Of a DNA stretch of 64,000 nt, positions 1 to 46,906 are shown piece after piece. The stretch is from positions 128,001 to 192,000 of the IMG/VR virus record IMGVR_UViG_3300031867_000003; one strand, given 5' to 3'. The translations under genes and the position numbers were made by a program. The first letter of the stretch is position 1; each line of letters starts with the position of its first letter. Origin of the DNA: a virus. Taxonomy: Duplodnaviria; Caudoviricetes. Below the pieces are notes generated by a model. The model worked only from the letters and a program-made list of their open reading frames with translations. It was not told the origin of the DNA and ran no database searches.

Positions 1-3000
1 TATTTGAGCTCATCATACGATATGCCTTTAAGGGCGTCAGCATATTCCATAACCGCATCTTTCGCGTTCTGAATTTTGGTCTTACCGGCTTCGAATGCCG
101 AAAACTCGGCGGTATTACGATCTATTCCAAATGCTTCAGCACCAAGAGGAGATTCCCACGAACCGATTTTGCCCTCAAGGTCTTTCATAGCAGATTCATA
201 AGATGCTTCATCAACCTCGAAGTCGGCATTTACTTTGATACCATAATCATCGGCTAAATCTTGTGCTTCACGGAGAAAACGATTTGCACTTGCTTCATCG
301 CCTCGCTCCATTGCATCATCATAATATGATTTAAGGTCTGCAATACTACTCTTGAGATTCTTAAGGTTGCTTACGTATTCCTATGCCTGTCCTCGCTAGA
401 AATTTTGAGTAGCTGTCTGTACGGCATTCAGCTATCCTTGATACTGATCAATGACATCCTACTGAATCGCCAAATCATCGGCGCTTGCGCCTTCACGCTT
501 CATTTCGGCATATTTAAGCTATGCATTGGTAAGTTCATTAGTCCATTTCTACGTCTGAAGTTGAGCGTCTTCAATAGAACTGACGAACGCACCCATTCCA
601 CCATATTCCTCAGCTTTGCCAAACATGTCACGGAACCATTCTTCTCCGGCTCCAAATTGATGGGCGGCTTTAGCTAAATCGGTAAAGTTCATCACCAATC
701 CTTGTGTGCCGTCTTCATATGTTTCAAGTGTCGCCATACCGGCACTCTGCAAATCCATCATGAATTTATGTACGCCCTAGATATCATCGGTCATATATTT
801 AGAGAATTTATCATAGTTCTGTTTGAATCGTGTCGGATCGGATAAACCCCATTCGTCAAAGTAAGCTGCGCGGGTCTTGTAGTCGTCGGTGCCAATCAGA
901 CCTTTATCCCACATTTCTTTAGCTTCTTTGAGATAATTCATTGCCTTATCATAATTTGCTCCTTGATTTACAGTTTGATCCGCAAGTGCAATTTGACCAT
1001 GCTGTGAGAATTGTTCCATAAGTTGCTGATAAGCGGCAAATACTTGTGATTGCTGTTGCTATAAATCCGCAAGTTCTTGCTTTAATTTGCTAATACCCGC
1101 AGTATTTATATCACCGCTGGCATTCTCCATACGGTTAAGGGCTTCGGTAGTTTGATTGATTTTTGTTGTTAAATCATTGTTAGATAATTCATATTCTTGT
1201 TGCGCGAGACGCTGTAATTCGACAACGTTCGCTTTAACGCCGTCGGTTGTATTATAGAATACACCGGATAAATCGGCAGAAGAACCTAAGTCGCTAAATG
1301 CGGTGGATATTGCTTTGATTGTATCCGGAGTAATACCGGTAGGAGTGGTCATTTCCGAGAATGCGGACTAAATAGCAGAAGAGAGGTCTTGCGCTTGAGT
1401 AAGTAATAAATTACGAGCTTGATCATCATAGCCATAGGCGTCAGCAAGTGCTTGCGCCATGGATGATTCGTTTTGGCGGATTTGGTTAAGTGTATCTTGG
1501 TATTCTTGTTTGTTGTTTCTAAGTGCAGGAAGTTGATTCCTCAATGCCCTGTTTTGGTCTGATAAATTCTTTGCTTGCTGTCTGGATAAAGTCGCAAGAT
1601 TTTTGTATTCTTTTTCGTTAGCTTTGATACCTTTTGCCTAATTTACGGTAATTTCGTCATTAATAGCAGAAGCCTAGTCCTAGATATTTGTCATCTAATT
1701 TTGTAATACATTAAGATGAGATTCTGCTTCATTATACATTGGAGAAGTGTATTTCTGGAGACCGGATATAACTTCTTCAGCATCTAATGCTTCCTAATAC
1801 ATGCTTGCTGACTACTCAAGGTCATATATATCTGATTTTGGATTCCCATATCTTTGAGCAAGATCAAGGGCCTCAGACATAATAGATTCCTAAATTCCAA
1901 TCTGTTCTTTTGCATTATTCGCCTATAACTTTGCAAGATTATGAGAAATATATTCTCCTCTGTTTTCAATATCGGTGCGTTCTTTTTGTAACTAATCTCC
2001 GTTAGCTTTGGAAGTGGCATAATCCGTTTTTAGATTATTTAAATCTGTTTGCGCATTTTCTTTTCTGGTTTCTATCATTTCTGTTTCCGTGCTTGAAATA
2101 TTTGCTATAGCCTCTCTATAATCAGCTAATGCTTTATCATATGCTACCTAATCACGTCTATCAGCCGCTTCATTCATCCTTCCAAGTGCGGTATTGGCCT
2201 TATCGTGATATGCCTAAATATCTGATTCATATAATGGCATGACACTATTATTAAGTTCTTCCTCAGTTAAACGTTCGCCTTTTGCTTGACGGTTCTCATT
2301 TCTTGCATTTATTAAGTTTCGCTTTTGTTCATTTTTCTCTAAAACAGCTTCAGCCTCACGATCTTTAATAATCAAATCCCATTCAATCTTTTTATGATTA
2401 TACTCAGCTAAAATTTGCTATAATGTTGATTCTGCCGTAATCGTACCATCAAGCGTCAGTTCCCAAAGAACATTATAATCAAGTTCTTCGCCATTCTATG
2501 AGAGAGCAGTTAATACATCATTATATTTCTATTCGTTAAGATGAGAACCTGTCTAATCTGTATATGAAAACGTTTCTTTTAAACTGTTTTTTGCTGTTTC
2601 GGCAGAAACAGTAAGGTTATCATAAGATTCAATTAAATTATCAATATACGCCTGTGATGCCCTTGTGGCTTCCGGTGTGAGTGGACCTTTGTCTGCCTAT
2701 ACTTTTTTAAACTCTTTGATATATTCAGACAACTATTTAACCGCAGCGTTATTAATGCCTTCAAATGAAAAATCGTCCATACTTGGCATAGCATCTTGCA
2801 AATTTTTCATTTCTTCTGCTGTAAGTTTACCGTTTTCACGGTAAGACTCTAGTGCATTATTCAGTGATGATAAATTAGATTCATACTGTGATGCACTTTT
2901 GGAAAAATCTTCGTCATTGAGAATATCCGCAAGAGTACCGGTTCCGGCTTCTTCTTTAATCTAGGATAACTGGTTCAAATATTCTCTGAGGGATTCAATT

Positions 3001-6000
3001 GTATTGCCAACAAAATTAAAGTTTTGATTGTTCATCGCTGTCTGGGCAATTCTTTGTTCTTTTTGCGTTAAACTCTGTATGTCATCCCAAGATATCTTGC
3101 TTTTGCCTTGTTTATAGACATTTTTACCATTAGCATCTTGAGTTACCTCGCCTCCAAGTCTTTTGAATATGGCAGCTCGAGTGTCAGTAGCGTTCCAGTG
3201 GTAATCACCATTTTCATCCTCATATTTGTATTCAAGACCAACAAGAATTGTTTGCTTTATTTTATAATTTTCAGTTCCTTCGCCACCTGGGAAAATCGTA
3301 TTTAACACACCATTAATCTGATCTCTCATTTCTTTATTGGTGGCGTCATCAAATTCAAAATTAAAAATTTTAGATAAAGCTTCTTTTGATACGTCTCCGT
3401 TGCTAACAGCTTGTTCTATCGGCGCAAGTATTCTATTTTTAATATCATCATCAAAACTTTCGCTATTAGAACCTAACTGTTCATATAATGTATCATAATC
3501 GATATTATATAACTAAGATAAAATACTATCCGTTAAATCTTCGCCGAGATGTAAAAAGTTAGGATCTGTCTTTAAAGTCGAAATTAAATTAGGAACAAAT
3601 CCAGTCGCCCAATTTGCCGACTTCTAAACATTGGCAGACTTTATAGTATCTTGTGCTCTTTCTATATAACCATTAAGAATGTTCTGGTACCCGTCCATAG
3701 AACTAGATAACTAGTTTAAATCGTCCTATGTTAACTTAAATGTTATTTTTTCACCCTAATCTCCGTGGCTATAATAACCATAATCTACCCCAAGACTGCT
3801 CAGTACATTTTCTAGCGCGGATCTGGCCCCGGAACTTGTAGGAGCATCCCACACTTTTGACCCAGTAGAATTTATCTCTGCAATCTTATTCTGTATTTCT
3901 TGTACCTATGATATCTGTTTTTCCGCACCGGCAATTTCGTCGTCATAGTTTTTGTTTCCTTCAACGATTCCTTTAACTATACCAGGCATTTGTTTTTCAA
4001 TTTCATTTGCTTTTATTTTATTCTGTGCTTCAATTAATTCATTTAATTTATCTGTTGCCTATTGAGCATTTTCCCCTAAGTCAACCAAAGACTATCCGCT
4101 ATCTGTTACTCCTGTTTTTAAGGATGGAAATGTATCCGCGAGCTATTGATTGATTGCCAAAAACTCCTCATAATCTTCTGTTGAGAGTGAGAGATTTTTA
4201 ATTTGATTTCCTCTCATATAAACACCGGAACGAAGTTCATTATAACGTTTTCTAGCGTTTTCGCCAACTTCATTAACAGCGGTCATTTCTTCTCTTGCTT
4301 TTCTAGCTTCTCCCTATGCCGCTAATCCTTTATTTATTTTGTTTTCTCTATAATGTGCTAGATAATTAATCCCTTCGATCCCTTTACCAATCGCAGCCGT
4401 AATAGCCATAGAAATTGCACCTGTTGCAAGACCGGAGATAGCAGTTAAACCAACGTCTTTAATGAATGAGGTAGCTATACCCTTAAATGTTGCTTTCTCA
4501 TTAAGTGCCTTTTTAAAATCATCAACAAGCATACCTTTGCCGCCACGTTCTGCAATGCCGGCGATTATGTCTTGCGCTTCATCCTTAGCATTTGATAAAC
4601 CGGTCTGCCTAACATCTCTTACTCCATCCCAGCCAAAAAGCTATCCGACGGTAGTAGCATTTCTATTTCCAGCTATTCTTTTATTAAGCCATTCAATTGC
4701 ATCTTCCTTTGGTTGCGTGTTAAATAATGCGTTCTTAAGACTTTTAAAAAATCCCCCATTAGTAGAATCAAATCTAGTTTTCATATCCTTAAAGATATGT
4801 CCAAATTCCCAATCCCCCATACCGTTTTTACGGAATAATCCGTTTCCGGTAAACTGAAGAAATCCGCCGATTCCGGCTCCAAGAATTCCACTAAGGCCGC
4901 CGAATGCGTCTACTAACTACGTAACTACTTCAACGGCAGAAGTGCCGAGTTCAATGATATCTTTAAGCCATTCACTGTCAATTGTTACTGTTGCCAGTTG
5001 TTGTAAACTATTTTGAAGCTGTGCCATTTTTCCTTCTACAGAATCAAGATATGTGTTAAGCTCGTTTTGTGCCGATCCTTGTGAGTTCATTAAAGAGTCT
5101 TGATAGACATCTTTTAATAGCTGTGGATTTGATAATAGGCTACTTGCTGCTGCTGCACGCGTTTTTCCTCAATTATGTTAAACATGGTTCACAACACCAT
5201 GTGATTCGTAATAAACGAATCTCTTACACTTTCATGCAAGTTCTGACCATTTCTTCACCCTCAGCATCATCTGTTAGGGGCATACCTTTTCGGCGTACCA
5301 TAAGTTTGTACCCTACGATTATTCATAATCTGGTCGATGAACGTTCGCCAATATATATATCCAAAATATACATACAGGCGCTTCGATGCAAGAACAGCCA
5401 ATCTTTATGTTATAAAACCATCATAATATATTTTCATTATTATTGTGGTATAAAGCTCTAAGGCATTACCTGCAATTAGATATGTTCTTTATATATATTT
5501 CTATATATTGTGGCAAGCCGTTTGCCACCGTTTCAAGTAATAGCGACTATCTATTAGTGCCCAGTTTCTTATCTTCCTCACCAATTTCCTTAAATACCTC
5601 AGCGATACCGAGCATACGTTCGTATGTTGTTTTGTAAGTACCGTCGTCATTCAGTATATCAAAACCTTTATATCCGTTTGATTGCACCTTTGTTGCGTCA
5701 AGAATCGTTTGTCGCAGTTTCGATTGTGTAGTAATTAAACCATCGATTTCTTCGCCGGCTTCTTGCATGTCTTCTACGGAAGTGCCGCTCAATCTCAGTG
5801 AGATTGTCTTAAGGGATTGGCCAACCGTGAGAGGATCTTGAAGGACGGCATTTGCAGCAGTAGTAAGAGCCACAGCTTCGTCAAATGAATCCGATCATGT
5901 TAAAGATAGTTCGCAACGCTATCTTAATTTATTGATAAACAATTATCAATCTTTATCTATCAATAAATTCTTTACCTTTCGGCAAAGTCCCGACTATTTC

Positions 6001-9000
6001 TTCACCCTCACCATTACGTGGAGGGGCATACCTTTTCCAATTCCATTTGCGATTGAATTGTACAATTAGTCTGTGAACGTTTATCTTCAATTAAAAAGAT
6101 ACTTCGCTGCGCGATCTACCAATTCTTATTTTTTAAGACTATCATAAACAATTGCTTGCTTATTGTAGTAATAAGACTCTAAGGTTTTACCCGCAATTAG
6201 ATATGTTCTTATAATATATTTCTATATTATCGGGCAATTGTTTTTACCCGTTACTTGTAATGTACCAGCAGATTTCTGAAGTGACTCAGCTAACTCTGAC
6301 GTACTGATTGCGTAGTTATTGCCTACGTAGTTTAACTTATCGATGATTTCCGATTTATCAAGATCTTTATACGCTTGGCTCATTGCAGTTAATGATTCAG
6401 TTGCAGCATTAATGTCTTGGAATTCCGACACATTAAGAAGTACAGTTGACAATTCCGCACTTTTTTGTGCCTACTCAAACGACTCGCCCAGTCTTAACCA
6501 ATCCGCAGTACTTTCTTGAATTTGTTTAGACGTTGTCCCGACGCGATCGGCAGCCTCAAAGCTTCCGTGTTGTGCAAAATCTTTAAGAACACTAAGTGGC
6601 TCGTCAGACACTTTTCGCATTTCCGTGAGGGCAGTGTCAAGTTCTCTGACGATATTTACTCCTTGCTTGGCAATATTGATTACTTCATACAAATCCGCGT
6701 ATGTAAGTAAATATCTCGCCATTCCCTTGAACGAACCTTTAAGAGTCTCACCAAATGATTTGCCGACATCTCCGGCTTCCGTAGCCTAGGTTTTTATCCG
6801 CTCAAATGCTGCGGCGATTTCATCAAGATTACCGGCGGACGCACCATTTATTGCGTCTTGAAGGTTTTGAATTTGTGGGAAGTATTCAGTGGCAGCGGAA
6901 TTTTTATACATCCACTCTGACATACGGCGATTGAGAGTAGCAGCATCTTTTTCGTCGGCGGGAGAGTAATACCCTCCACTAGATCGTTGAACTACGTCAT
7001 TCAATCTGCCTCTAAAAGATAATACCTAAGCCTAAATCTAGTCACGTCTATCGGGGGTGGCTTTTTCATATTCCCCAGATATTTTAACCAAATTTTCAAA
7101 CTCTTCGTTTAAATCATGCAGAACGTTTACTCCATCTTCATTCCAGTTTCCATTGCCTAATTTTTGAAGAACTTCACCCATTTCCTCAAGGCTGTCGGTA
7201 AATGCAGACGTCTGCGCCTCATTCATAGTGTCATCAAATTGTTGTCTTAATTGTTTTAACGCATCCGATGCCTCACCTTGTGCGGTGACGAAAAGTCCAG
7301 TTTTATTTATCGCATTTTCATAAAAAGTTCCATATCTGTTTAAAAACGCCTATTCAGAATAATCCAACATCTATCCGTTTCTCTGCTTTTCATTAATTTG
7401 CGCATAACGCTCTGCATACTTAATAAGTGTTTGATATCCACGCTCAACATTTTCAAATTCATAATTCTCATTATCATTAAATGCGGACATCCCTGATTTT
7501 AAAACGTCCACATCTGCCATTTTTTGTCTATAAGTATCAAGAGCCGCATTAGGAACAGTCCCATCGTTTCTCTAATTCAATTTGTCAAGCGATTCATATG
7601 CTTTTTCTGCTTCCTCGCGATACTTTTCCATTGTTTTTATCGCCTGTTGTAGCTAATTGGCGCTTATCTCTCCAAGATTAAACATATCCTATGCATTAGA
7701 GGCTCGCTTTGCGGCATCATAGTATTGCTATATTTTACCGGCCTATTCACCGACATATTTAGATTCAGTAGCCTCCCATTCCTTTGCCAATCTGGCATCA
7801 TGTGAGGCAATAGCTCTATCTAAATCATCTCTGGATTTATAAGAACCATCTTTCGAAGTTACCCATTTGTCTAAAGCAGAGTCTGTCTATTCCTATGTAA
7901 TTTTCGATGCTTCCTTAAATTCATATATTTTTTCTATCGCTTCGTCCGCAGCTTCTGCTGTATCTTCCATCATTCTGACAATAGAACTTTTTACATTGTC
8001 CGGAATCACTTGCCCTTTTGCCTCATCTGTCAACATTTTATTATACGTATCTCTAGCTTCAATTGCCCTTTTTATTATATTAATTTGCTCTTCATATTCA
8101 TCCTTATTCTTTTTATTCACTGCAGCTGTTTTTTTATCCTAGGATTGTGCGGAGCCATTTTGAGCAGCTTCCCACGCTTTTATCCCTTCTTGATATTGCT
8201 CATCTGTAATATCATCTTTTATAGCCTCTAATTCACGCTTCGCGTCAGCAGCTTCTTGATATGCTTTTGTTAATCTAGAAACGGCCTCAGCCCATTCTTG
8301 TGTTTGTTTAATTTCAGGATTAGACTCGGCTTTTGCCTCTAGCTCATTCATTTTAGTTCTAGCGTTAAATAATTCTTTAAATTTATCAGTTTGTTCTTTA
8401 TAAAAATCACTAATCGTTTTATTTCGTTTTTTATTATCATCAGCTTGTGCCTTACCCTATGCCTCATAACGCTTACGCCCCATATTATATTCAGTGTTAC
8501 GCGCTTTTTGATATTGCTATTCTTCCATAGCGATTGCCATAGCATCTGATTTTTGACCTTCATATTCAGCATTTACATCCTTAAAACGTTGTTGAATAGA
8601 TCTTAATTTATTATTAAATTCCTCTAGGTCTTTGGATTTAAGATTGGAGCCGATATTTTTTTCAAGATCACTCAATTCTTTTTCTAAATCTGAGGTATCT
8701 ACATTAGACTTCTACATCTTACGCATGGTATTATGTATATCAGTAGTTAATTTATCTTTGGCAGCTGTTATGCTATATGGATTAAACTGAGTGTTTGCCT
8801 TTTGATTTTTTATAGCCTACTGCGCCGTTATTTTATATTCATTAATCGCAGCCCCTAGCTGTTCCTTTACTGTTTTCGGCATTTCTTGCCCAGCGTATTT
8901 ATCAAAGAAATCTTCGAATATTTTATTATACAAATTAGTAAGCTTTGTATCGTCCTCACTTGAAAAAGTTACTCCCGCATTATCTATATATTTCGCTTTT

Positions 9001-12000
9001 ATATTTTTAAGATTGCCCTTTTGCCTAGCAATAAGAGCATCGGTATTTTCAATGGATTTATTTCGCTTTTCGTTTTGTCTAAATTCTATTTCTTCATTTC
9101 TCTATTGTAACTTCGCCTAAACAATATCCGCAGACTCCTTTGCCCTTCTCTCGAAATCTTTTTTCTAATCTTGTCCAGGTTTATTATCAGCGCTATCGTA
9201 ATATCCATATAATTCATCGGTCATTCTCTGAAGCATATCATAGTATAATCCAAGTTCGTTTTGCATTGCGTCGGTGTTTTTACCTTGTTTTTCGGCATTT
9301 TTAATATTATTATCCAGCGTAAGCACTTTGTTTTGCATGCTTATTACTTGTTTTTCAAGGCTTTCATAAGTATTGTCTGTTTTAACCGATTCAAACTCAT
9401 TACCATCCTCATCGCGTATAATTCTAGTGGTTGCCTTTTCTCCATAGCCTAATCGCATAGTATAGGACGTTCTTTCGCCGTTTACTTTTGTTTCCCCAAT
9501 ATACGTACCTTTTCGATTATCAGAAGTATCACCTTGCTGAGTTACCTCAGATATAGCATCTGAATTTCTCTCAGCAGCTTTACCTTCATTATCAAGGCCT
9601 TTTGTCGCTTTCTTTGTGGCGTCAGCCGTCTTTTCACCAGATTCAGCAACTTTTCGGTTAGCCTCTTCAAATTTCTTCTTTTTTATCTCCGAAACCTCGG
9701 CAGCGTCACCCTCATTTTTTATTTCCTTAGTGGCGTCCCGAAGCGGTTTAGCTCCATCAGTTGTGTTTTTCGTAATTTTTACCGAAGACTCAGATAATAA
9801 TTCATTTAAATGTTGTTGATCATCAACTGATTTTTTAATATAACTTAGAAAATCATCTTTGCTAGATGGTGGATTAGATAAATATTCGTAAAGCTATGAC
9901 AATGCACCCTATGTATTAGTAGAAGTATCAAAGATGTGTCCAAAAGACTCATTTATCTCTTCCAAAAATGATATCGCATCTGAACCTTTTTTAGTTGATA
10001 AAGTACCAATACCAATAGTTCCAAGAATGTTGTTCCAGTCATCACCAAATTCTTCTCGGTCACTTTTAGAGATTCGTATTTTATTAGATGATACAAAACT
10101 TCTAATTTGTTTCCATAAATTCATATCGCCATATGATTCAATTACTCCGCTATCCCTAGAAAGAATATCAAACAGATTATCATAAGTTGGTGTTTCACCG
10201 TTTGCGGTTTCAACCAAAAGATTTCGAACTTCATTTTTTAATTGTCCAAATATTTTAGTGGACTTCACACCGAATTCATCACGAATGGCAGACGCTACCC
10301 TAGTTGTTTCTTTTTCTAAGTTTTGTTCATCAATTATAATATCGTCTATAGGCGACTCACTGGGTATACTTTTATCCCACATATTAGATATTTCATTAAA
10401 AGTATATCCAAGTTCTTTTGCTTTAGAATTAAATTGATCTATCGCGTCTGTAAACGGAAGATTTTTTTCTGTAACCTAAAATTCCAAGTCGTCTACTATA
10501 GACTACAAACTTTTTGGAGCCAACTTGGTCATATTTTCAAATTTCTAATGCGGCAAAATATCCTCGCCATTTTGTGAAATCTTCTTCCAGGATCCAGATA
10601 TTTCATCAAAAGCATATCCAACTGACTCGGCAAATTTTCTAACGGCCTCTTCACCTTTAATAGACTCCTTGGTTATTTGATCTAAGAAAGCACCATATCC
10701 GTCCGGAAGTTCATCCTCCGCCATTCCCATAGCATCTAAAATAGGCTATGTTCCCTCTGTGAATTTCAATATTTCACCATTTACACGACCATTTCTTTCA
10801 CGTTCGGCTACAAGTTCTTCCTATCTTTGAGCTATATGAGATTTAAACTCATCCATTGCCGCATCATATTCTTTTTGCCCAGTAGCAACGTCGGCTATTA
10901 GCTGATTTACAAAATCTTGATTTGCATCAGAATATCCCTCTATGGAGCGGATATCTTTTCCAAATGTTCGACGTCTGTCGTCTGGGACGGCAACTGGTGA
11001 AACTGGAGCCCCATCAGAATCTCCAGCTTTATGATTTTCATCATCTATAGCATCGGCTGCCTCTTCAATCTTTTCTGCCGTTTCTTTCCCAGATTCAGCA
11101 ACTTTTTCTTTATTTACTTTCGCGAATTCTTCTTTATATGGGATTGCCTCTTTGGCGGACTCGCCCTCGGTTTTTATTGCGTTTGCACCTTCGCGGAGAG
11201 AAGATAAGTCAATAGAAGATATGGTAGACTGAAATGTTGTGATAGATTTATTTAACTCATCAAAATTACCGGCAATGCTTTCCCAATTAATATTTGATAA
11301 TATAGAATCGTTACCACCTAAACTAAAAGCGTTCTATATAGCCTCTCCCATTTTTTCGGCGTTCTCAGCAACTTTCTGCATTGTTTCGTTAAGTTGCTCA
11401 AGAAATGATGGCGCTTTTGCGTCTTTCGGAAGAAGCCCCTTTGACATTACATTATGCAAATTGCCTATTGCATCTGTAAATAATTGGATTTGTTGTGTGT
11501 ATTCTTTTACGGAATCGGATTGCCCAATTTCATCATCAGCTTTTATTCTGGTCTAACTCAACGTTTCAAGTAACTGGTCTTTTAACTTCTGTTTATCTTC
11601 AGGAGACTTTGTAATTTCTGCCTTTTCACGAATTCTTTTACTTATATATTTGAAATCCGTTGCCGGAAAATTTGATTCCAACATTTGATCCCAAAATGAG
11701 TTTTCCCCTTTTCCGACACTTTCAGCGGTTCTCTATATAGAAGAGATGAATGCCATTATTTGTTTAATCTGGGTCTTTGAATCTGGTAATAGTTTAATTC
11801 TATCTGGATTAAACTATTCAACGAATTCCTAAACATTAGGGAACGCTTCCAAAAACCCGGAACTTCTTGGTGACTATGCCATAATATTTGCTAAAAGCTA
11901 TATATCACTAACATCTCCACCAAGCATACCTTCATCTTTTAATGATAATTTATATTTGTTTACGACGTCTAATATATTTTTATATGCTGCCTAATATCTT

Positions 12001-13619
12001 TCAGCCTAATTTAACCATTCTGTTTCTATATTTGCCTCAATTGCTGCGTCCGCTACATCGTCTTTAACATGCACATTAAACTATTGTTCTTTTCTTGATG
12101 TGGCTCTCGAAAAATCCCACATTTCTCTATTAAGTTGCAATAATGATTTCTGATTATTTCTAGCTTTTTGGTTAGTACCTTCTCCAAATCTACCTATAGC
12201 ATCAGATACCTAATTAACCACAGATAACAAAGACTAAAACTAACTAATTAACGGTTCTATTCCAGCGTCTGTATCTATTTGACCAAATGCAGAACTAATA
12301 TTTGTTATTTCCGTATTTAAATTTTCTAGTGTATTAATCAACTATTGAATATTTTCCGTATTCCAAGACGTAGAATCACCACTTGTAGCATGAATTTCTG
12401 AAGACATTTTTTCTTTTTTTTTATTAATATTTTCTATATGTTCCTCGGTATCATTTAAAGCCTATTCCGTTTCATCTATATTTGGCATTTTTATTTTTGA
12501 AAAATCAAAATCATTAATAGCCTATTTAATATCATTAAGTGCATTTTTAAGTTCATTTAATGCGTTTGTTGCGGAAGTTATTTGTCCCTCATCAATTTTA
12601 AATGTTAGTCCATTACCATCTTCTCCGAGAGCATCTAGGGACTACGAGACTTTATCTATAATATTTTGAAATTTCTAAAACGTTCCGTCATCTTGAAATG
12701 CTTTCTTAATTTTGCCAATAGAATCGGCTACGCCGGATTCGGTCTCATCTTCAACTCTATCAGCCATCTGTTTGGATGCCTCTAACTCCCTCTCAAGTTC
12801 TGCTCGCTGCTATTTTAATGACTTAACCTAGGACTTATTTATTTCATCTGGATTTCTTCCAAGATTCTATAAATTTTTATTTCTAACATCAACCAGTCTA
12901 GCCTATATGTCTTTATAGTTTTCAAACACGCCGGAATCTTTAATTATTCTGTTATCGGGGTTTAGAGCAGTTCTTAATTTTTTAGTAATATCAAATATTA
13001 TTTGAGAAAAATCTTTATCGTCAAACCCTATTAACTAACTCAAGTCTCCGCCTTGACCCAAATATTTAAATAAATTATCAATATAACCACGCAAATCACT
13101 TGCATTTTCCTTAGAAAATAGCCCGTCCAATTGAACATTTGATGTAGCAAGCTATTGTATCTTTCTATATCCTTGACTATTAGAATCAAGTAAATCTCTT
13201 TGTATTTTCCTAAAATTATTTTTTGCCTAGTTAGCATTTTTAATTTGTTGATTTATGTTATCAATATCAAAACCGATTACTTCCTCTGGTCTAACAGTTG
13301 TTTTTCCGGCTATCTGATTAACGGTTCTTCCAACATTTTCTAAATTGCTCTATACTTCTCGAAGAGAATTGCTAAGTTCGTCCATCCCTGCAACATTTAA
13401 ACCAAATAAATCTTCGCCGTTCTATCCTTTATACATCTTTGTTACATTTTTAATCGCGGATTCAATGTCCTTAATTGAGTCTAATATTTTTGATGTATCT
13501 ATATCTGCATTAAATTTAATTGGTTTTTTAGCTCTTCTTTCCAATTCGTCTATTTTTTTAGTGCCACTATCATCAACTTCAACTTTCAACGGCACAATCA
13601 CGGTTTCAGTTTCTTTCAT
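1..13619 (-). CDS. Tape measure protein, >4300 aa in window, runs off left edge; exons 13619-6246, 5891-5524, 5169-<1; many in-frame TAG (Gln)
   Basis: The ORF fragments starting at 13619, 10730, 10382, 9458, 8351, 8120, 7226, 7004, 6722, 6452, 5873, 4532, 3329, 1352, 1019 and 761 share one frame and end in TAG where inspected. TP901-type TMP core (VRELDTALTEMRKVSDE, ESTADWLRLG, KLNYVGNNYAIST). GGGGTGA RBS before ATG 13619. Confidence 0.92.
5170..5523 (-). ncRNA. Group I intron in tape measure gene (354 nt, no ORF)
   Basis: Core motifs: AATTGCAGGTAA (P), GTTCATCGACCA (R), AAGAAATGGTCAG (S); P7 GACCA/TGGTC; terminal G. Removal joins LLETVA|GKTRAAAASS in frame. Confidence 0.85.
5892..6245 (-). 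ncRNA. Group I intron in tape measure gene (354 nt, no ORF)
   Basis: The 5' exon ends ACGGGT and pairs with IGS GCCCG (U.G at splice site). P AATTGCGGGTAA, R GTTCACAGACTAA, S AAGAAATAGTCGG; terminal G. Splicing gives AGTLQVTG|DSFDEAVALTTAAN. Confidence 0.92.
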
Positions 13620-32604: not shown

Positions 32605-34173
32605 TTACTAACAAACTAATTTTTCTTCTTCTATTTTTTGCCAAGTTAAACGAGTACCATCTGGAAGATGCCCAGATGTTTTTCTACCATTTCTAAAATA
32701 ATTAGTTATAGAAGCATGATACTTTTTATCGGCAGCGGAATATGAATCAAATATTTCTCCAGTCTCAACGCATAAAACCTTGTTTGGGATATTCCCCAAC
32801 ATCTTATATCCATGTTGGCGATTCAATTCAATTATCTCTTCTTTTGATTCTTTGATTAATCCGATTGCAGAAGCCTTATATAGCAATTCCCTCGCAGAAT
32901 AATCGCTTATTCCTAAATCCTTACAAATCTGATACAAAGACTTCTCTTCATATGAATTCCATAAATCAGATACTTTTAATAAAATACTCTTTGAGGCAAT
33001 TTTATCAATTTCGTCAAAATCAATACCAGACAAATCAAATATATTTGAAAGAATTGAATTTTTAATAGAATTTATAATATAATCCCTTTTGTTTTTACTC
33101 CCATAATTATAATCAAGCCTAATAATTGTAAACCCATGTTGTATAGCCAAATCGTCTTTAATCATATCTTTAGCTATGACATCCTTGGCAGTTTGACCAG
33201 ACATATTATTGTCGCAATAATGAAAACCACCATCTACCTCAATAATATATTTAATATTATTATGGCAAAACATGAAATCATATCTCGATAAATCCACCCA
33301 TTTAGGAATATATTGATACTCATATTTAATATTTAAACTATCAAGCATAGCCATTATAAAACGTTCCCCATAACTCGTTTTGTTACCACATAACTCACAA
33401 CTAAACCCTCTCAATGAAACATTATTAACTAATCTTTTAAATTTATGTCCACAATCTGGACATAGCCACCATATTTTAACCCCAGAATTAGGCGTATACT
33501 TAAAAGCGTCCTGTGGTGAAAGCAAAAACTCTTCAAGGTCAGGTCTTAAAGTATGTATGTCATTAACATTGGTCATAGGCCTAATTCTGACTTCAGGATT
33601 ACATAAAGGACATAAACAATTGCCTTTATATAATAATGTCTGAATTGCTCGAGAGAAAACAGTCCCGCATATATTATGTCTAATTCTCATTGTTTGATGA
33701 GCATTTTTATATTCGTCCAATGGAATATATTCATCCCCATACAAATCATAAAAACGTTTTAGAAATTCCTCGTTTGTTAATTTTTCCGAATTATAACAAA
33801 TTGGGCATCCTTTCCCAGACATCACCTTACTAGGCGTAGTTTCTTTTTCATGCCCACACTCCAAATATTTAACTAATATTGGAGTTTCATGATTTATATA
33901 TTTACCAAGTATTTCATATCTGCCCGGATATCTATTCTCAATCTTTTCAACAAATTCATCGTGGGTCACCCTATATAAATTCTGACAAATAGGACATCCA
34001 AACCCGCCTAAGAGATTCGACGGACGAACCTCATTTTCATGGCCACATTTATTATATTTAATTTTTACCTTAGTTTTTGCATTTATATAATCACCAATAA
34101 TGGTATACGTGTCTGGATATTTTTCATTTAATTCATTTTGGAATTCTTCGGTTGTTTTCGCTTTTCTTGGCAT
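32605..34173 (-). CDS. Zinc-ribbon repeat protein with Vsr/DUF559-like endonuclease domain (free-standing HEG-like)
   Basis: Repeated CGH..GCPIC units and RYDF...IIEVDGGFHY; ends TAG-TAA. Confidence 0.8.
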
Positions 34174-36681: not shown

Positions 36682-36685
36682 TGAG

Positions 36686-37002
36686 CGGCGGAGTTGGGAC
36701 TTGCACCCAAACCGACGGGCTCAGAACCCTGTAGTTTTCTTACCACATTATGTTTCCATAACCGAATATTATTCGTTGTAGTCTGGGACATCTCATTACC
36801 ATATTTAATAATATATTAAACTTAGGTAGAAGCTCTATGTCCTCCACACATTTATAAGATATAATAATCTTAATTTAGCTCGGGATTGCCATATACAAAA
36901 CGTACTTAGGTGTTCCCCGAATTAGGCTTCTTTTCAATTGTATTTTTCAACACAATGCTCCAAAACATCAGAGACTACCTGTGCTGCTTACACCACTCCG
37001 CT
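36686..37002 (-). tRNA. Amber suppressor tRNA (anticodon CUA) split by a group I intron; exons 37002-36970 and 36738-36686 (86 nt mature, CCA not encoded)
   Basis: Spliced form: acceptor AGCGGAG/CTCCGCC, D arm GTGT-AAGCA-GCAC, anticodon arm GTAGT-CTCT|AAA-ACTAC, extra arm GGGTT-CTG-AGCCC, T arm TTGGG-TGCAAGT-CCCAA, G73. Confidence 0.85.
36739..36969 (-). ncRNA. Group I intron within the tRNA anticodon (231 nt)
   Basis: P1 exon CTCT / IGS GGAG with U.G at the splice site; P10 GTTTT/AAAAC; P AATTCGGGGAA, Q GGCAATCCCGAG, P7 GGACAT/ATGTCC; terminal G. Confidence 0.88.
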
Positions 37003-37528: not shown

Positions 37529-39109
37529 TTACGCAATTGTACTGCCCGTATTTCTACTTCTTTCAGCACTACCGCTTAAATCATCATCGTCCGACCTAGG
37601 TCTTCCGACCGTGTTACTGGAAGTATTATAACTTGATTTCAAAGGTTTCATCATATCTTTGATACCAATAGCATTCTCAAACCTAATCTTGTTAATTGCC
37701 TTATACGGTGTTCCTTCAATAACAGATAAATAGTCCAATGCCGGACCACCTAATGTTGCGGAATCTTTATATCTTTGGATATAATCATCCTCATTAAACC
37801 AGGTTATTCTCAATATCTCAAAGATATACCCCTTAGATATATTTTCCGCAATATAAAAATTCAGCCAAGATTCCAACCTATTTACCCAGACCCACACATT
37901 TGATTGATCCGCAAGCTGAGCAAATTTAATAGCTAGATTAGAAGTAGAATTTCCACCGGACACAACTGTTTGTGTTAATCCGCTGTTGGAAAACAGATTA
38001 TTTATAGATTTCGCTAATGCATCTGTATCCGACGCATGTGACGTATCATTAAACGTAATTTTATCAATGTCGAACGGAGCAGTAATAACACCGACCAAAT
38101 CCGGCACTGACTGTTCCTCAAGCTGTCGAAAATAATTAACCATCTCCATTGAGATAGCAAAATCATCAACATCCCCGCTGTTACCATTATCCACTAACGG
38201 TATCTTATTCACAATCAAAGCATAATTCTCAAGTTCTGTTTTAGATTGAAGAATCTGCTGCAAATCAAGTAAATCTAATAAATCCGTAAACAGCGGAAGA
38301 AAATATGGCAATGGGAACGAGAACTCATCTTCCGGACCAATCAATAAAACACAACATTTTTCAGGCGGTAATCTAAACCATTGATAATCACGTCCGCCAT
38401 CCTTATATGAACGGTATCCGTTAATAAATACCTCATCCCAAGTTGCATAACTTCCTTGCCCATCAACTCCGAGAACAAACTCACTGTTGTTAGCAGCGTC
38501 AAAAAATGCAGCATTAAAATATACGACCCATTCTCCATACTCATTTTTTCCGACTATTCTGCAATATTGAACGTCTAGCGGCATTAAAAAAGTTCTTCCT
38601 TGTTTATTCTCATAAACGTACCCAGCATAAAATCCGTCACGGATTGCAAGATATAGTGCGGTATACATATCTTTCTTCAGACTAAACTTGTCAAAAGTCT
38701 CGAGTACTTTTTGATAACCCTTGAGCGCCTTATCCACATCTATCTCTTCGGCTAAATCATTTGCTTGAGTAATTGTATAATAGAACAACGGCATCGCCGC
38801 CATATACATAATCATCTTTTGATACAACATTGAATTCCTAACTAAAAATCTCGAAATTTCTCGAAGAGTATCTTGATTGTTAGCCGGAGACTAAACATAT
38901 GTTTTTACGAGATCTTTAGTATATTGCGTGAAAGTTCTGTTTACAGACCTAGTGGCATTACGCTGAAGAATTTCTTCCATCTTGGCAAATGTCATCGTTT
39001 GCGCACGATCACGCTTATAAGAAAAATCCTCCACATCCGCGGGGATTGTAGTTATTTTAGTTTCATTATTTTTGGGGCCGCCGTCAGCGGTTTTCTTTCT
39101 TGTTGCCAT
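37529..39109 (-). CDS. Portal protein (526 aa, TAG at codon 73)
   Basis: Fragments 38891..39109 and 37529..38830 are in frame; follows terminase; C-terminal PLKSSYNT..VGRP is typical; AAGGAGGTG RBS. Confidence 0.85.
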
Positions 39110-39124: not shown

Positions 39125-40882
39125 TTATTTAAATCTGGTTACTTTTCTAGGTTGGCGGAATGTAAATTGAGAGAATAGAGAGTTTATATCTTGGTTTTTC
39201 GGTCTCAACTTTAACTCCAACTAACACGCACACCAATAATTATAAGCAATAGAAGAGTAACGGTCTTTACGCATACCTGACTATTCTTTAACTTTAATGT
39301 TACCATTCTTAACCTCATGATCGAGTTTAATTAATTCATACTCTGCCATAGTTGTTTGCAAATACGGCATCTTTATATATGCCTAATCAGTCGGAGAGAG
39401 TTTGGAATAGGGTTTATATAATTTTACCAATTCCTCTTCACATTCTTGTTCTGAAATAAGAAAGCTAATTCTACCATTCTATATTCCATTTCTAAGCAAT
39501 ACACATATTTCGTTATTGAAAGTTGCACCAGCTTTTACTGACCAAACAACTTTATTTGCATCTTTAACTTTACATCTAATAGCCATGTCTTCATCATTAA
39601 TGCACGTTAACGCTTTATATGTTTTTCCAGTCGAAGAATCATATTGATCCTTACAAATAAAATCGAAAATTCCAATTCCTAGTCCTCCTGTATCAACCAC
39701 TAAGTCAGTGCATTTGTATTCATAGAAATAACGCATAACAATAATCCCAAGTTCGTCAGTTGTTAACCCTTCGAAAGTTTCTCCGTAAACTACATTTGAA
39801 TGATAACTTATGTCATCCTACTGAATCGCACTATTGATATATAATGCAGCTGCGTCATTCTTCTTTTTCTTTGTTGATCCCATAAGAGCTACGTCAACAG
39901 AAAGAATTCGTTTTTCTGTTGCAGAAACATCGGGGACTTTGATTTTATCATTATAGAATTTTAGTGGTAATAAGGCGTTTTTGATTTTTCTCTATTTATT
40001 TATCTCTTCCCACTTAAAGAGATTATCACCATCATCTCCGACCCACATACATTCCATTTCCATAGTAAAAGCAAGTTCATTAAAGTCAGCTTCTGATTTT
40101 TCATCCATTACTTGATCTTTGGACAAAAGACCTTCTTTGATGCTTAATTGATATGGTAGTCCACAGCAAAAATATCTCTTAGTGTCATCGAAAAAATTAA
40201 CCACATATGCTTGTAACTTTTTCCATGCCCATGAACTTTTAAAATAAGCACTACTCATATATATTTCTTTATTTCTTTCTTGCAGATGAGAATACTCTGG
40301 CTTATTTAAATATCCCGGCTATCTAGGACTCGTTAAAAATTTACGAATAACCAAATTCAAAATAGTCTCATCAACCATACGAAACTCATCAACTACAATG
40401 ATATTCGCTCTAGCACCACGAGCATTATCTGTACTAGTTCTTGTTGTAATCCAAGAACCATTTTTAAACATAATAATTGCATCATTCTATCCTATGTTAC
40501 ATTTTTCTATTTCAGTACATAAGATAGGAGACATTTTCATTAGTTCATCCTGTATTTTTAACAATACTCCATTTGCCTATTTAAGAGTACCGGAACAAAC
40601 AACAATCTTACTACCAGGATATAATATACATCTTACAACACAAAAGAGCGCAGTAAGCCAACTTTTTGACATACCCCTTGCGGCAATAAACATAAAGTAA
40701 TTATAATGCATCATCGCCCATATTAATATCTTCTAAAAAAGCTTAAGGTGTATGCCTAATACTTCTTCAACAAACCGCTCTGGATTTGCACGATAATAAG
40801 CTGCTCTAAAAGCAACTGTCTACATTATTTTCTGTTCTTTGTCCTGAGCAATTTCACGAACAGATTTCTTTTTTTCAGCCAT
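39125..40882 (-). CDS. Terminase large subunit (585 aa, multiple TAG)
   Basis: LKLF(Q)KI, Walker A ARGMSKS, Walker B IIVVDEFR, coupling motif YMSSA, RNase-H motifs LSVDVA and KDRYSS. Confidence 0.93.
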
Positions 40883-41937
40883 CACAATTCCTCTGTGGTT
40901 CCGAATATCTGATCAAATAGAGTTTCGGAATCTGTATCTTCATCGTATTGTGGTTTATCAACTGTGTATTTTTTGATAAACTTTTCATACGTATGAGAAA
41001 ATGCATTTTTTAGTCCCATCATACGAGACATATGACCTTTAAAAAATACATCAAGATAAAGTCCTATTTTATTAACTGAACGAAATTCTTCGTCAGGCTC
41101 AGGAATAGGTTTTTCATTTTCCCATTTTTGTATCAACTGCCCAAATGTTTTAGCCTCTGTAAGTGCATTGGAATTATTTTGATTAGGTTTTAATGACATA
41201 CTCCCCATTAAATCTTGAAGCGTTTTATCTAATTCCTTTGTATCTTTACCAGCCTTTTGGGCCTTATCTATATCTAGTTCTTTAAAGCATATACGTTTAA
41301 ATAATATTTCTTGTGCCTTATTTTCACAAGCATAACGCTTTATCCAATCTTGATATTCTGTCTCTAAAAAAATTAAATCAGAATTTGTATACCCATCACC
41401 AAATCGTTTTTTGGCTTGTTTCAGAGTTCTAGAATTTTCGTTTATCTCTTCCTCATCTTTATCGAGATAATCAGGGGGAAATTCTGAGTCTCTCCAGCTT
41501 TTATTTTTATACTGAAACAGACTTTTTACCATTACGATATACTGACTCCATGCGGTTCCTCTATGTTTATCTTGTATATCCTCAGAGGTAGACGAAACAG
41601 CAGATTGATATAAAGAATCAATATAGGGCAAATCCATCATTCTAAGTACATCCATTGTTTTATCCCGATTATCAGTATATTGATTCGTTTTCTTATCATA
41701 ATCACAAGCCATTTTAATTAAACATTTTTTGCAAATTGGAAACAGCCCACTTGAGTAACTTTTATCCGAATAAAAAGCATCGGTATTGTGGAACTCATTA
41801 CATTTTGGACATAGAAATACATCCCCATTTATTATGCGATTATAATCCTTAGCTAATTTATTATATTCTTGTCTAACCTAAGCGACCCCAGTTTTTCTAA
41901 TTTCCTCCTCTGTAAGTGCTTGTTTTAATCTAATCAT
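40882..41937 (-). CDS. YonG-like protein upstream of terminase, possible small subunit (351 aa, TAG at codon 20)
   Basis: Read-through extends ORF 40882..41712 with CPKC...CKKC; TFGQLIQKWENEKPIPE motif. Confidence 0.7.
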
Positions 41938-43067
41938 AAAATACCATCCTTTTTATCATAACTCCACTTATATCCTTTATAACTATCTATAATACCCTTG
42001 CAACAATCACTTATGTTGCTCATATTAAATCCATCAACTACAACATCGGATAATCTATTATATGTTTTAATTAGTACCCCATCCAAATCCAGTTGTAATA
42101 TTTTTCCACGATATCTTTTTCTAATAGTATTACATAACTCATAACATTTTTCAGGAGTAAAATAATCTAAATCTTCCTCATAACAAAATACAAATCCCTT
42201 TACTGTATTTCTTTTCCTCTGACAACATTCCCTAACCATCCTAATATGAAAACCACTCCGTGTAACATCATGCATAGAATCATACATTTTTACAATAGCC
42301 CCATTTTCATCTAATTGAACAACCCTTTTAGCCTTCATCCTATTATGTACATTATTTATATATTCTAGATATTCATCTGTTAATATATAATAATCATCCT
42401 CATAAATATAAATATAACCATGAGACACCAAAGTCCCATTAGTCCTTGATCTTATTGGATTATATCCTAATTCTAATCTCGCTATTTTACACGTTTCCCA
42501 TTTTTTAAGAATATTCCCAGATAAATCACACTGTAGTACAGGTGCAACTTTTCTTTCATCAAAATACCACTGCAAGCTGTCAAAGCCATGATAGTCTTCT
42601 AAGAAACAAAATATATATTTGTCTACCCTCTTTATTTTTTTATGCACACATAAATATATTGCGCTAGGATCTATATTTAGTTCTCTGGCGGCCTGCGGGA
42701 CATTGTTCCATTCTTTAATTAGGTTTCCAGACAAGTCAAATTGTAATACTACATGTATACACGAAGTACCTTGCCCTCCAAGAGTATTATTGTACCCATT
42801 ACAATCAACAAATCCGTGATATGTCCTTAATCTATCTATCCAATATATTTCTTTTTCGTCTAATTCATTTTCATTACATAATTCAATAATGGAAAAATCA
42901 AATTTATTTTCACCATGCTTATTCCACGAACTCTACAGATGACTATTCCCATGTTGATTCTTATTTAACAGCCTTTTATGGTCTTTCCATCTTCTGTTAA
43001 TATCAACAGCTTGACCAACATACATTTTCCCATTATCCAAATTAGTAATTTTATAAATTCCAGTCAT
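41934..43067 (-). CDS. GIY-YIG homing endonuclease with NUMOD1-like repeats (377 aa, TAG)
   Basis: MTGIYKITNLDNGKMYVGQA..RRW..HL(Q)SSWNKHG..GYN; repeated VLQxDLxG units; AGGAGG RBS. Confidence 0.9.
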
Positions 43068-43087
43068 AACATTCCTCCTTTTCATAA

Positions 43088-43117: not shown

Positions 43118-43163
43118 AAGCAGTTATTCCGTCAGAATGTAGCCAGTATCATCACTGGTAAAT

Positions 43164-43232
43164 AGAATATGTACGACTCGAACGTCTCCCCTTCGTCCCA
43201 GGCGAAGTGTGCTACCATTACACCACATACTC
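43164..43232 (-). tRNA. Divergent tRNA or pseudo-tRNA, anticodon TGG (Pro-like)
   Basis: Acceptor GAGTATG/CATATTC, D arm GTGT-AATGGTA-GCAC, anticodon arm CTTCG-CCTGGGA-CGAAG, T loop TTCGAGT; short T stem and C33. Confidence 0.6.
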
Positions 43233-43313
43233 TAAAATAATAAATTTCACCACGGGAATCGAACCCGAAGCAGAAGAGTAGTAGTTACTCTCCCGCGTAC
43301 CAACCTAAACAAA

Positions 43314-43590: not shown

Positions 43591-44148
43591 TTATCTTTTT
43601 TGTTTTATTTCTTGAAACTGAATCTTTGCCCATATGGAGTCTTCATAAAACTTTATAATCCAAGGCTCAAATTCAATACCTCTACACAATATAAACGGAT
43701 TTACAGTAATCCATTTTTGCCCGCCACGTACATGAAATCCAATAACATCCTTATCTTTTAAAGAATTCATTATTTTCCTCAATGTATCATACTTCATATT
43801 TCTTATTTCGGCTAAGTCCTTAATCGACAAAGCTTTACCACGAGCATCTCCGTTTTTTCTTAAGACGCAATCACCATAGCAAACAAAATGTATAAGAAAT
43901 ATTAAAGTAGCGACTTCTGGATTTGTAAGTCTTTTATCCAATTCTAATTCAACCCCTCTGAACAATTTAGAGAAAGTATATTCTGTCATAAACGGAATGC
44001 GTTCATCTTCCTCGGCATTATCCGGTACGGATTCTTCAATAATTATCCTATAATTCTTATTTTCTTCCGGCTCAATTATTTCACCAGTCTAGTCATTAAA
44101 TACTTTTCCCAAATTATTTAATACGGTTCTCTTAGTTTTATTTTTCAT
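43591..44148 (-). CDS. RepL-like/winged-helix DNA-binding protein (185 aa, TAG at codon 20)
   Basis: FND(Q)TGEII, LSIKDLAE..YDTLRKIMNSLKDKDVIG, TVNPF; paralogous to 58968..59555. Confidence 0.65.
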
Positions 44149-44184
44149 AATCCTCATCCCTTCTCCATCCGATTATTAAAATCA

Positions 44185-45047: not shown

Positions 45048-46265
45048 TCATTGCTTAAACTTAACATCATATATACAATCAAGGCCTTCATTCTCATCGA
45101 TAACAAGAACAGTCTGCTCGGGGTAGTTATTTAGTCGCTTACTTATTGCAAACGAATCAGTACCGGACAAACAGCCGGTTTGCACAACTTTAACGTTGCT
45201 CCTGGTCATATAAGCATTGGTGTGTCGATGACCGAGGAGAATTAAATCCCACTTAATTCCTGTCAACTGATTAAGGTTATCAATGACATTATCCGGGGTA
45301 TCTTTGTCGCCATGGACAAATGCCACATTCATACCGCGAACGGCAAACATCGCAATACCTTGTTCAATGTCATTAGTATGGAAAGTAACATTCTTAAAAT
45401 TCTGAAGTTTAGCACTCAAGAACGGAATCACCAAATTATCAAAATTCTCATGATCGAGACTTTCTTTAATGTTTGGAGTAATTCGTGAGTGATTCCCGGG
45501 CGCCACATATACATTTACTTCATTAAATCGGTAACTAAGTGCCGCAATAAAATCTGCAACATAATCCATCACCATAAGAAACTGGTCAATCAAATCTTGA
45601 TTATTCTCGATACGGAGAGTGGAATGAATAATTCCCGATAGCATCTCAGATAGTAGTACGTAGGCGTTCTGACAACCATGAATAAGTTGTATCTCAAATA
45701 TACGGTCAAGGTAATGGTTAAGTCGTCTTTTTAACACATCCTCGTTGTACTCATTCCAAAAATTCTTAATCTCGAGACCGGCATGGACATCGGATAACGG
45801 AATAATCATATCTTTATCAGAAGTAATAGTGCCATGAAAACGAGCATTGTCCTCGTACTCCAGAGCGCGAGAATCCGCAGCATCAGTAATAGAACGAACA
45901 AACTGCTCCATATAGGATTCCTTCCGCGCTTGTTCGCGGAGTAATCGCCTATACTCATTACGCTCATCGCGCACCTTGACACGTTCTTTCTCCAGTTCTC
46001 GGCGAAGTTCGCGCAGCTCCTCGGCGTCCGCCGATTGAGTAGCGTCACCGAAATCCTCGCGGAATTTACGAACCAGTGCATACTTCTTCCTAAAAACTGA
46101 ATCCGTAACATACTCGTCCGGGTTATCATTGAGTTCTTTATTAATACACTCGGCCAACTCGGGCCAAGTCATATCAATAAGTCCTTCATATTTTTTATCC
46201 CCCAGTCGGGTAATATACTGGAGTTCTGTTTCTCCGGGTAAACGTTTGGTAATTTGTTCAATCAT
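45048..46265 (-). CDS. Calcineurin-like metallophosphoesterase (YonJ-like)
   Basis: LSDVHAG, PGNHSR, FVHGD, LGHRH motifs. Confidence 0.88.
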   Translation of the reverse strand: MIEQITKRLPGETELQYITRLGDKKYEGLIDMTWPELAECINKELNDNPDEYVTDSVFRKKYALVRKFREDFGDATQSADAEELRELRRELEKERVKVRDERNEYRRLLREQARKESYMEQFVRSITDAADSRALEYEDNARFHGTITSDKDMIIPLSDVHAGLEIKNFWNEYNEDVLKRRLNHYLDRIFEIQLIHGCQNAYVLLSEMLSGIIHSTLRIENNQDLIDQFLMVMDYVADFIAALSYRFNEVNVYVAPGNHSRITPNIKESLDHENFDNLVIPFLSAKLQNFKNVTFHTNDIEQGIAMFAVRGMNVAFVHGDKDTPDNVIDNLNQLTGIKWDLILLGHRHTNAYMTRSNVKVVQTGCLSGTDSFAISKRLNNYPEQTVLVIDENEGLDCIYDVKFKQ

Positions 46266-46282
46266 TAATTACCTCCCGATAA

Positions 46283-46504
46283 TCATTCCTCATCTTCAAA
46301 GGAATCCGTCAAATCCATCTCGTCCTTAGTAGAAATACTCACATCAATAGCCTCGCCACGGAACGGCTTAAAACAATCTAGAATAGAAATTGTCTTAGAT
46401 TCAGCGTCACCATTAATATACTCAAGAGTGGTACCATCTGCGGAAAGAGTACCTTTAATATTGAACTTAGAATTGACAAGTTTCTTGTATTTATAATTCT
46501 GCAT
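46283..46504 (-). CDS. YonK-like small protein
   Basis: Size, acidic tail and position immediately upstream of the phosphoesterase. Confidence 0.6.
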   Translation of the reverse strand: MQNYKYKKLVNSKFNIKGTLSADGTTLEYINGDAESKTISILDCFKPFRGEAIDVSISTKDEMDLTDSFEDEE

Positions 46505-46531
46505 AATTTATTTCTCCTTTTAATCCATCAA

Positions 46532-46834
46532 TTATTTCTTCACAGATACGCCGGAAGTTTTCGCAGCGTAATCCTTCGCACTTCTAATAGAAGCAAGCAG
46601 TATATCCATTGCCTGAGTCGGCTTAAACCCGGCCTTGGTCAACGCATCATATTTCTTCTTATAATTAGTGGCTTCAACCGCATAGTATTCATCGTTGCCG
46701 ACCAAGTCTTTATACATACCAAAGAGTTCTCCGGCAGCGGAATAAATAATCGGTTTTGCCGCTTTGATAACCCCGGTAACCACGGAGTTAATTTCATCCG
46801 GGTTGGTCATCAATGCTTGTAATAATTCTTCCAT
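46532..46834 (-). CDS. Hypothetical protein (100 aa)
   Basis: AAGGA RBS; open ORF. Confidence 0.7.
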   Translation of the reverse strand: MEELLQALMTNPDEINSVVTGVIKAAKPIIYSAAGELFGMYKDLVGNDEYYAVEATNYKKKYDALTKAGFKPTQAMDILLASIRSAKDYAAKTSGVSVKK

Positions 46835-46906
46835 AATCCTTGTATCTCCTTAAAAAAATACTGCGGAAATCCCCACCCCTGAAATCTCCGCAGTTATATC
46901 AATATA

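Follow-up and report, generated by a model that had tools for sequence, protein, structure and literature searches.

What does the codon TAG mean in the late genes of a large phage, when a reading by the standard code leaves even the gene of its large terminase in pieces? The question is raised by a window of 64,000 nucleotides, bases 128001-192000 of the 202,175-bp IMG/VR record IMGVR_UViG_3300031867_000003 (positions given below are those of the window unless the genome is named), and more specifically by its positions 39125-43067, for which an earlier note had proposed that TAG is reassigned to glutamine (genetic code 15). The phage comes from gut or rumen; the record is 100% complete according to CheckV, and its first 100 bases are repeated at position 201,499. 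Our analysis indicates that in the late genes of this phage TAG very probably stands for Gln. Moreover, the only tRNA(CUA) gene of the genome is located in the same late module, and a group I-type intron interrupts its anticodon.

Translated with table 11, the flagged region consists of many short open reading frames (ORFs), which become abutting minus-strand genes when TAG is read through. The frame of the large terminase, a homolog of YonF of phage SPbeta with weak matches to the Pfam families TerL_ATPase and Terminase_6N (39125..40885, minus strand), is then open over 586 residues and contains 11 TAG codons. Those at 40733-40735, 40577-40579 and 40319-40321, for which Gln had been anticipated, fall exactly on residues 51, 103 and 189. 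The TAG at 42933-42935, likewise singled out before, is residue 51 of a GIY-YIG/NUMOD1 homing-type endonuclease gene (41934..43085, minus strand; 383 aa; Pfam GIY-YIG, E=5e-12) and the sole TAG of that gene. The gene of a tape-measure-type tail protein (6126..13619, minus strand; 2,497 aa; Pfam PhageMin_Tail at residues 2356-2458; 32% identity to SPbeta yomI by tblastn) holds 57 TAG codons. The pieces of this gene do share a single frame, as the earlier note stated, only the count of sixteen has to be amended: there are 58 segments, 15 of which are at least 60 aa long. The one gene end reported to use TAG, at 32608 and followed by TAA, belongs to an HNH/DUF4379 endonuclease-like gene (32605..34173, minus strand), which read-through lengthens by one codon.

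The effect on coding density is in line with these single cases. In a greedy non-overlapping ORF call, the coverage of window positions 1-44200 increases from 0.69 under code 11 to 0.87 with TAG as a sense codon, the longest ORF grows from 857 to 2,498 codons and the number of genes falls from 105 to 80; over the whole genome the coverage increases from 0.81 to 0.92 and the number of genes falls from 374 to 277. A naive stop-to-stop coverage was dropped, as it is misleading for TAA as a sense codon in an AT-rich genome. The late-module ORFs of at least 80 aa contain 302 in-frame TAG codons and, by construction, no in-frame TAA or TGA; in their two alternative frames there are 2,174 TAA and 1,899 TGA triplets. 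Therefore, frames of up to about 2,500 codons that are open but for TAG are not a matter of chance. The objection foreseen in the earlier note, namely that read-through frames might meet TAA or TGA soon after a TAG, does not apply: they remain open for hundreds to thousands of codons. That the called ORFs themselves end in TAA or TGA holds by construction once TAG is taken as sense. In 16 ORFs genome-wide, several of them early genes, a TAG lies at most 20 codons from the TAA or TGA end and could be a stop with a back-up, and in a few early ORFs, where a TAG stands 1-6 codons ahead of TAA or TGA, the arrangement looks like a TAG stop plus back-up.

The identity of the encoded residue was assessed at the level of DNA codons, with the code of the relatives checked codon by codon, because the protein database is itself partly translated with TAG as Gln (e.g. 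P0004) and a comparison of proteins would be circular. In 8 of the 11 TAG columns of the terminase, the residue found most often among 120 homologs is Q, which is nearly invariant at residues 51, 103 and 555. In a standard-code relative (L010), whose terminase has no in-frame TAG, 8 of these 11 sites are CAA or CAG, and a recoded relative (L009) carries CAA or CAG at four of the TAG sites of the phage and TAG at three of its CAA sites. The single TAG of the portal protein gene (37529..39109, minus strand; 526 aa; PHROG 2739, E=3e-84), residue 73, corresponds mostly to Q in standard-code relatives. Over 48 related loci, the 870 cells aligned with a TAG comprise 197 CAA, 123 CAG and 78 TAG codons; CAA and CAG together thus fill 320 of the 870 cells, against a Gln background of 3.3%, and the residues that come next, E, K and R, are the usual replacements of Q. 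The enrichment in Gln that the earlier note expected in homologous columns is therefore present.

A Codetta-style likelihood, for which the substitution tables were taken from the same alignments and which was computed on the 35 loci without in-frame TAG (611 cells), also favours Gln, as suggested earlier, with values of -1474 for Q, -1806 for H, -1922 for E, -1952 for K, -2062 for S, -2515 for L and -2559 for Y. No other residue thus comes closer to Q than 332 log-likelihood units and, as far as the alignments can tell, a meaning of Glu, Ser, Leu, Tyr or Lys is rejected for TAG. In two complete sister genomes (G001 and G002) TAG, CAA and CAG are swapped with those of the phage in both directions; their protein identity is only about 55%, so that they added fewer sites than hoped. 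Three standard-code relatives on contigs of Lachnospiraceae-type metagenome-assembled genomes (MAGs) again have Q at TAG sites, and the cultured phage SPbeta, which is too distant to inform, has Q at 2 of 13 TAG sites, both of them terminase columns in which Q is invariant. In the late genes, then, TAG stands in frame and corresponds to Gln.

Only one part of the genome is recoded. The minus-strand late module (genome 83.3-172.2 kb), to which window positions 1-44200 belong, covers packaging, head, tail and several homing endonucleases and contains 304 TAG in 27,648 codons, where TAG makes up 27% of CAA+CAG+TAG; the first TAG-containing gene of the module in 5' to 3' direction on the minus strand (43591..44157, 188 aa) has one. 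The minus-strand block upstream of it (genome 172.2-187.6 kb, window 45048-59555), which encodes a YonO-like polymerase (51378-53948), HU, PhoH/PIN, ClpP and a YonJ-like protein, is practically free of TAG, with 2 in 4,431 codons. Expressed per 1,000 codons, TAG occurs 11.0 times in the late module, 0.45 times in the polymerase block and 2.5 times in the set of early plus-strand ORFs, some of which are short and doubtful. Among the plus-strand early genes (genome 1-83 kb and 188-202 kb) the long ORFs are free of TAG, for instance one of 1,161 aa with 31 CAA/CAG. The share of CAG in CAA+CAG+TAG is 25% in the late module versus 48% in the early genes, as expected if TAG replaced CAG. Code 15 as put forward in the earlier note thus holds for the late module and does not extend to the whole genome, the early genes and the polymerase block being almost TAG-free.

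The genome is written in such a way that it is readable under both codes: being essentially TAG-free, the early genes and the polymerase block can be translated by a host that uses the standard code. Within the late genes, no bias of TAG toward gene starts, as a 'gate' would predict, was found: TAG is distributed evenly over the deciles, and the median position of its first occurrence is codon 51. The polymerase block has a single TAG-containing gene (47845-49203, minus strand; 2 TAG), which is homing-endonuclease-like (DUF4379/NUMOD1) and probably represents a mobile insert that was already recoded on arrival.

Plain tRNA finders report just four tRNA genes in the whole genome, for Met, Gly(UCC), Gln(UUG) and Pro(UGG), the last of which (43162..43234, minus strand) is the only one reported in the window, and neither plain ARAGORN nor the Rfam tRNA model found a CUA tRNA anywhere in the genome. 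When introns are permitted (aragorn -i), a tRNA(cta) appears at 36685-37002 on the minus strand, in an ORF-free gap and with an insert of 231 nt. It is the only tRNA(CUA) of the genome and it lies in the late module; plain finders miss it because the intron splits the anticodon. On the minus strand, the 5' exon (36970..37002), 100% identical to positions 5675-5707 of a related phage fragment (L013), ends in ...GUAGU-CUCU after the anticodon base U35. The intron (36739..36969) sits within the anticodon between U35 and A36, and the 3' exon (36685..36738) supplies A36, a long variable arm, the T arm and the acceptor strand with G73. Joining of the exons in silico gives a cloverleaf of 87 nt with the anticodon loop CUCUAAA.

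The same tRNA occurs in L013 without any insert, at 99% identity over 86 aligned bases and with the break at the predicted junctions; this insert-free homolog (L013 5675-5760) scores 36 bits on the Rfam tRNA model, above its gathering score of 29. In L016/G001, the complete relative that is closest to the phage, a homologous intron of 196 nt occupies the same anticodon position of a different class II tRNA(CUA), insert-free versions of which are present in L018 and L031. These insert-free alleles fix both junctions to the base; splicing itself is inferred. The intron matches the Rfam model Intron_gpI (RF00028) with 29.7 bits (E=2.5e-5), is preceded by a U at its 5' junction and terminates in G, and the CUCU can pair with a GGAG 8 nt downstream to form P1 with a U-G wobble. 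Its recurrence in a different tRNA(CUA) of L016/G001 makes it look like a mobile element that targets GUCUCU|AAAAC. In other phages a search with the pattern of the intron core gave unrelated group I introns only, L016 excepted. A promoter scan around the tRNA(CUA) gene did no better than on shuffled sequence, and an upstream terminator at 37085-37060 is the sole feature that stands out nearby.

Other candidates for a tRNA with this anticodon were discarded. A scan for CUA anticodon loops gave two matches, both within coding sequence and not tRNA-like. The tRNA-like genes at genome positions 12087-12168, 12891-12981 and 14050-14141 (L005, L007 and L006) pass the Rfam tRNA score yet are abnormal (the anticodon loop measures 17 nt in one and 4 nt in another, which also has a 25-nt insert in its D loop), and none of them is able to present CUA. 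A further unusual tRNA is conserved upstream of the terminase in standard-code relatives (L034 8828-8901, L035 2213-2286, L037 8829-8902 and L040 820-894); its anticodon loop has 8 nt, AUAUUAAG, AUUAUCAG or AAUGUUAG, and ARAGORN assigns no anticodon to it.

By its shape the tRNA(CUA) of the phage belongs to class II: the variable arm is long, and both the D loop and the T loop are atypical. In its acceptor end A1 stands unpaired opposite C72, followed by G2-C71, and the discriminator position is G73; it also has G10 and U35. On the basis of the E. coli identity rules we take this combination to be the mark of Gln, not of Ser, Leu or Tyr. The loops of the variable arm, as compared among the window, L013, L016, L018, L031 and L036, fall into four lineages (UUCUGAG, UUUUGAG, CUCUGAA and, in L036, one that contains UUGAA), at least the first three of which look like the anticodon loops of Gln tRNAs (CUG/UUG). 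The single difference between the window and L013 converts CUG to UUG, both of which are Gln anticodons. A search of the phage for the catalytic domain of glutaminyl- and glutamyl-tRNA synthetases (GlnRS/GluRS; PF00749) and for a release factor (PF00472) gave no match. Since the phage does not bring a synthetase of this type, the tRNA(CUA) is most likely charged by the GlnRS of the host, and two MAGs with related phage contigs indeed encode a GlnRS (714 and 720 bits, at a cut-off of 426). A class II tRNA(CUA) of another kind is found in a relative without in-frame TAG in the aligned genes (L050 4061-4147): it has A73, a U1-A72 pair and no Gln-like loop in the variable arm, and may be an amber suppressor of the Tyr or Leu type.

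The long variable arm, which is a property of tRNA-Ser, tRNA-Leu and tRNA-Tyr, could be taken to mean that TAG is a sense codon for one of these residues, or for Glu by way of a non-amidated Glu-tRNA, E being the second commonest residue at the TAG-aligned cells (48 of 611). We nevertheless judge such a meaning highly improbable, considering that the likelihood of Q exceeds that of E by 448, S by 588, L by 1,040 and Y by 1,085 units, that columns which are invariantly Q in standard-code terminases are TAG in this phage, and that the sister phages swap TAG with CAA and CAG. Moreover, the tRNA combines G73 with an unpaired 1-72 and lacks the A73 that, by the identity rules we assume, characterizes Leu and Tyr tRNAs. 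The lack of a synthetase and a release factor in the phage would also agree with a host in which TAG already means Gln, or which provides the suppressor, the phage following the code of its host. This explanation has even less in its favour: the phage carries its own tRNA(CUA), and its early genes, the TAG-free ORF of 1,161 aa included, avoid TAG almost entirely, which must therefore be a stop at the start of infection.

Least probable of all is that TAG has remained a stop, in which case the late genes would be broken (by decay of the element or an assembly error) or expressed by rare read-through, or that it encodes pyrrolysine, the label 'Pyl' being what ARAGORN gives to any CUA tRNA. The late frames are interrupted by TAG only and never by TAA or TGA, several complete relatives with terminal repeats show the same TAG pattern, and relatives share the TAG positions or have CAA or CAG there. 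Leaky read-through cannot pass 57 TAG codons in one essential gene. The pyrrolysine system was rejected as well: columns of the Lys type are not enriched, K (-1952) ranking far below Q (-1474), and the tRNA has a long variable arm, unlike pylT-type tRNAs; pylS was not searched for.

A number of points weigh against Gln as the meaning of TAG, or against the way in which we think it is brought about. The terminase, together with relatives that are not mutually independent, dominates the likelihood count, and Q holds the majority at 14 of the 42 distinct sites, the rest being variable positions; no other residue leads at more than 6 of them. It is from homology that we infer the insertion of Gln at TAG. 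The tRNA has the class II body of classical amber suppressors that insert Tyr, Leu or Ser. For a frame with 57 TAG codons suppression has to be nearly complete, yet no means to silence release factor 1 (RF1) was found. The 29.7 bits of the intron are below the gathering score of 50 that Rfam has set for the family. Finally, the MAG contigs may be mis-binned phage, which leaves the host uncertain.

Taking TAG as Gln in the late module, we propose the following course of events. The standard-code host would first translate the early genes and the block with the YonO-like polymerase, which are essentially TAG-free. The precursor of the tRNA(CUA) would shed the 231-nt intron from its anticodon, the host GlnRS would load Gln on the spliced tRNA, and the latter would decode TAG as Gln in the late genes, presumably outcompeting RF1. 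One might go further and suppose that the code switch is timed at the level of RNA, with splicing and not mere transcription of the tRNA acting as the gate to late translation: because the only tRNA that reads TAG has a split anticodon, the TAG-rich genes for packaging and the virion would be untranslatable before splicing. In such a scheme the class II body with its Gln-like variable-arm loop might serve to recruit the host GlnRS. We consider this extension unlikely.

Several other genes of the late module complete the picture. The terminase is flanked by a gene for a YonG-like protein (40882..41937, minus strand; 351 aa, 1 TAG; PHROG 3314), which is 35% identical to the yonG region of SPbeta (tblastn), and a late protein of 2,284 aa (genome 126236-133090, 55 TAG) lies partly in the window (3..5090, minus strand), with 39 of its TAG codons. 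Group I introns that score above the Rfam gathering threshold are located between late ORFs at 28204-28481, 5970-6255 and 24742-25093 (80.6, 70.1 and 61.2 bits, respectively, all on the minus strand). Several late genes, perhaps including that of the tape measure at its 3' end, are thus split by introns besides being interrupted by TAG. In two MAG-borne relatives (L089 4582-7527 and L090 6001-8015) inserts of ~1.2 kb and ~0.27 kb, which are probably introns, break the terminase gene behind the codon for about residue 71-77.

The large terminase is 44% identical to YonF of SPbeta, its neighbours match the YonG, YonJ, YonB, YonD and YomW families of relatives, and the 856-residue protein encoded at 51378-53948 (minus strand) is a distant homolog of SPbeta YonO (E=3e-11, 24% identity). 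The homologs of the packaging and late-transcription proteins of SPbeta (YonF, YonG and YonO) occur in conserved order, and by virtue of these homologies the phage can be regarded as a large SPbeta-like phage of about 202 kb. Among the phages of a GenBank collection of 50,697 records the best identity of the terminase is at most 46%, so none of these is closely related to the phage. Contigs binned with Lachnospiraceae and Anaerocolumna MAGs carry related terminase genes, which is a weak hint to the host; probably, the host belongs to the Lachnospiraceae.

The reassignment of TAG to Gln in gut phages has been documented before, and the phage described here is an additional, SPbeta-like case. 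There are consequences for annotation: gene callers that use the standard code shatter about 90 kb of this genome, leaving the terminase in five or more fragments and the tape measure in 58, and standard tRNA finders would class the phage among the recoded phages without a detectable suppressor. Late genes with TAG read as Gln, suppressor tRNAs of the phage and standard-code hosts have been described for crAss-like phages, Lak phages and six further clades; suppressor tRNAs were detected in only 40% of the TAG-recoded genomes, perhaps because some are non-canonical (10.1101/2021.08.26.457843). An SPbeta-like lineage, probably of Lachnospiraceae, now joins the phages that combine standard early genes with code-15 late genes. 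The result fits the published model in which recoding acts as a brake on late gene expression, and leaves that model unchanged.

As in the code-15 crAss-like, Lak and 'gemstone' phages of Borges et al., TAG in the terminase aligns with Gln, recoding is concentrated in structural and late genes, the early genes are standard, and a tRNA(CUA) is provided by the phage, usually without a synthetase. Unlike these, the present phage is SPbeta-like (YonF, YonG, YonO), has no release factor 2 and carries a class II suppressor that is split by an intron. Large human-gut phages represented by phAss-1 (the proposed Phassvirus), in which TAG in the terminase, tape measure and portal genes is read as Gln and which possess tRNA-Sup-CTA genes, have been compared with the genus Spbetavirus (PMC10607447). 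phAss-1 differs in its size of 136 kb and in having three suppressor genes, which tRNAscan detects. Introns in the tRNAs of recoded jumbo phages have also been mentioned (PMC13037316). SPbeta itself (SPBc2, NC_001884) shares the terminase, YonG, the tape measure, the YonO-type polymerase, HU and YonJ, as well as the arrangement of the late genes on one strand, but keeps to the standard code and lacks a tRNA(CUA).

Group I introns are well known from the anticodon loops of bacterial and plastid tRNAs, for instance tRNA-Leu(UAA). The intron of the phage resembles these introns in its position inside the anticodon, the U before the 5' junction, the terminal G, a length of ~200-250 nt and the lack of an ORF; it differs in that its Rfam score is below the family threshold and that it resides in an amber suppressor on which late translation would depend. 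Gln-charged amber suppressors of E. coli include supE and the mischarging mutants of the su+3 tRNA-Tyr, and tRNAs that combine a CUA anticodon (with U35), G73 and a weakened 1-72 pair are directed to GlnRS for charging, even when their body is of class II. In contrast to these laboratory mutants of cellular tRNAs, the tRNA(CUA) described here is a natural phage gene, for which charging with Gln is predicted.

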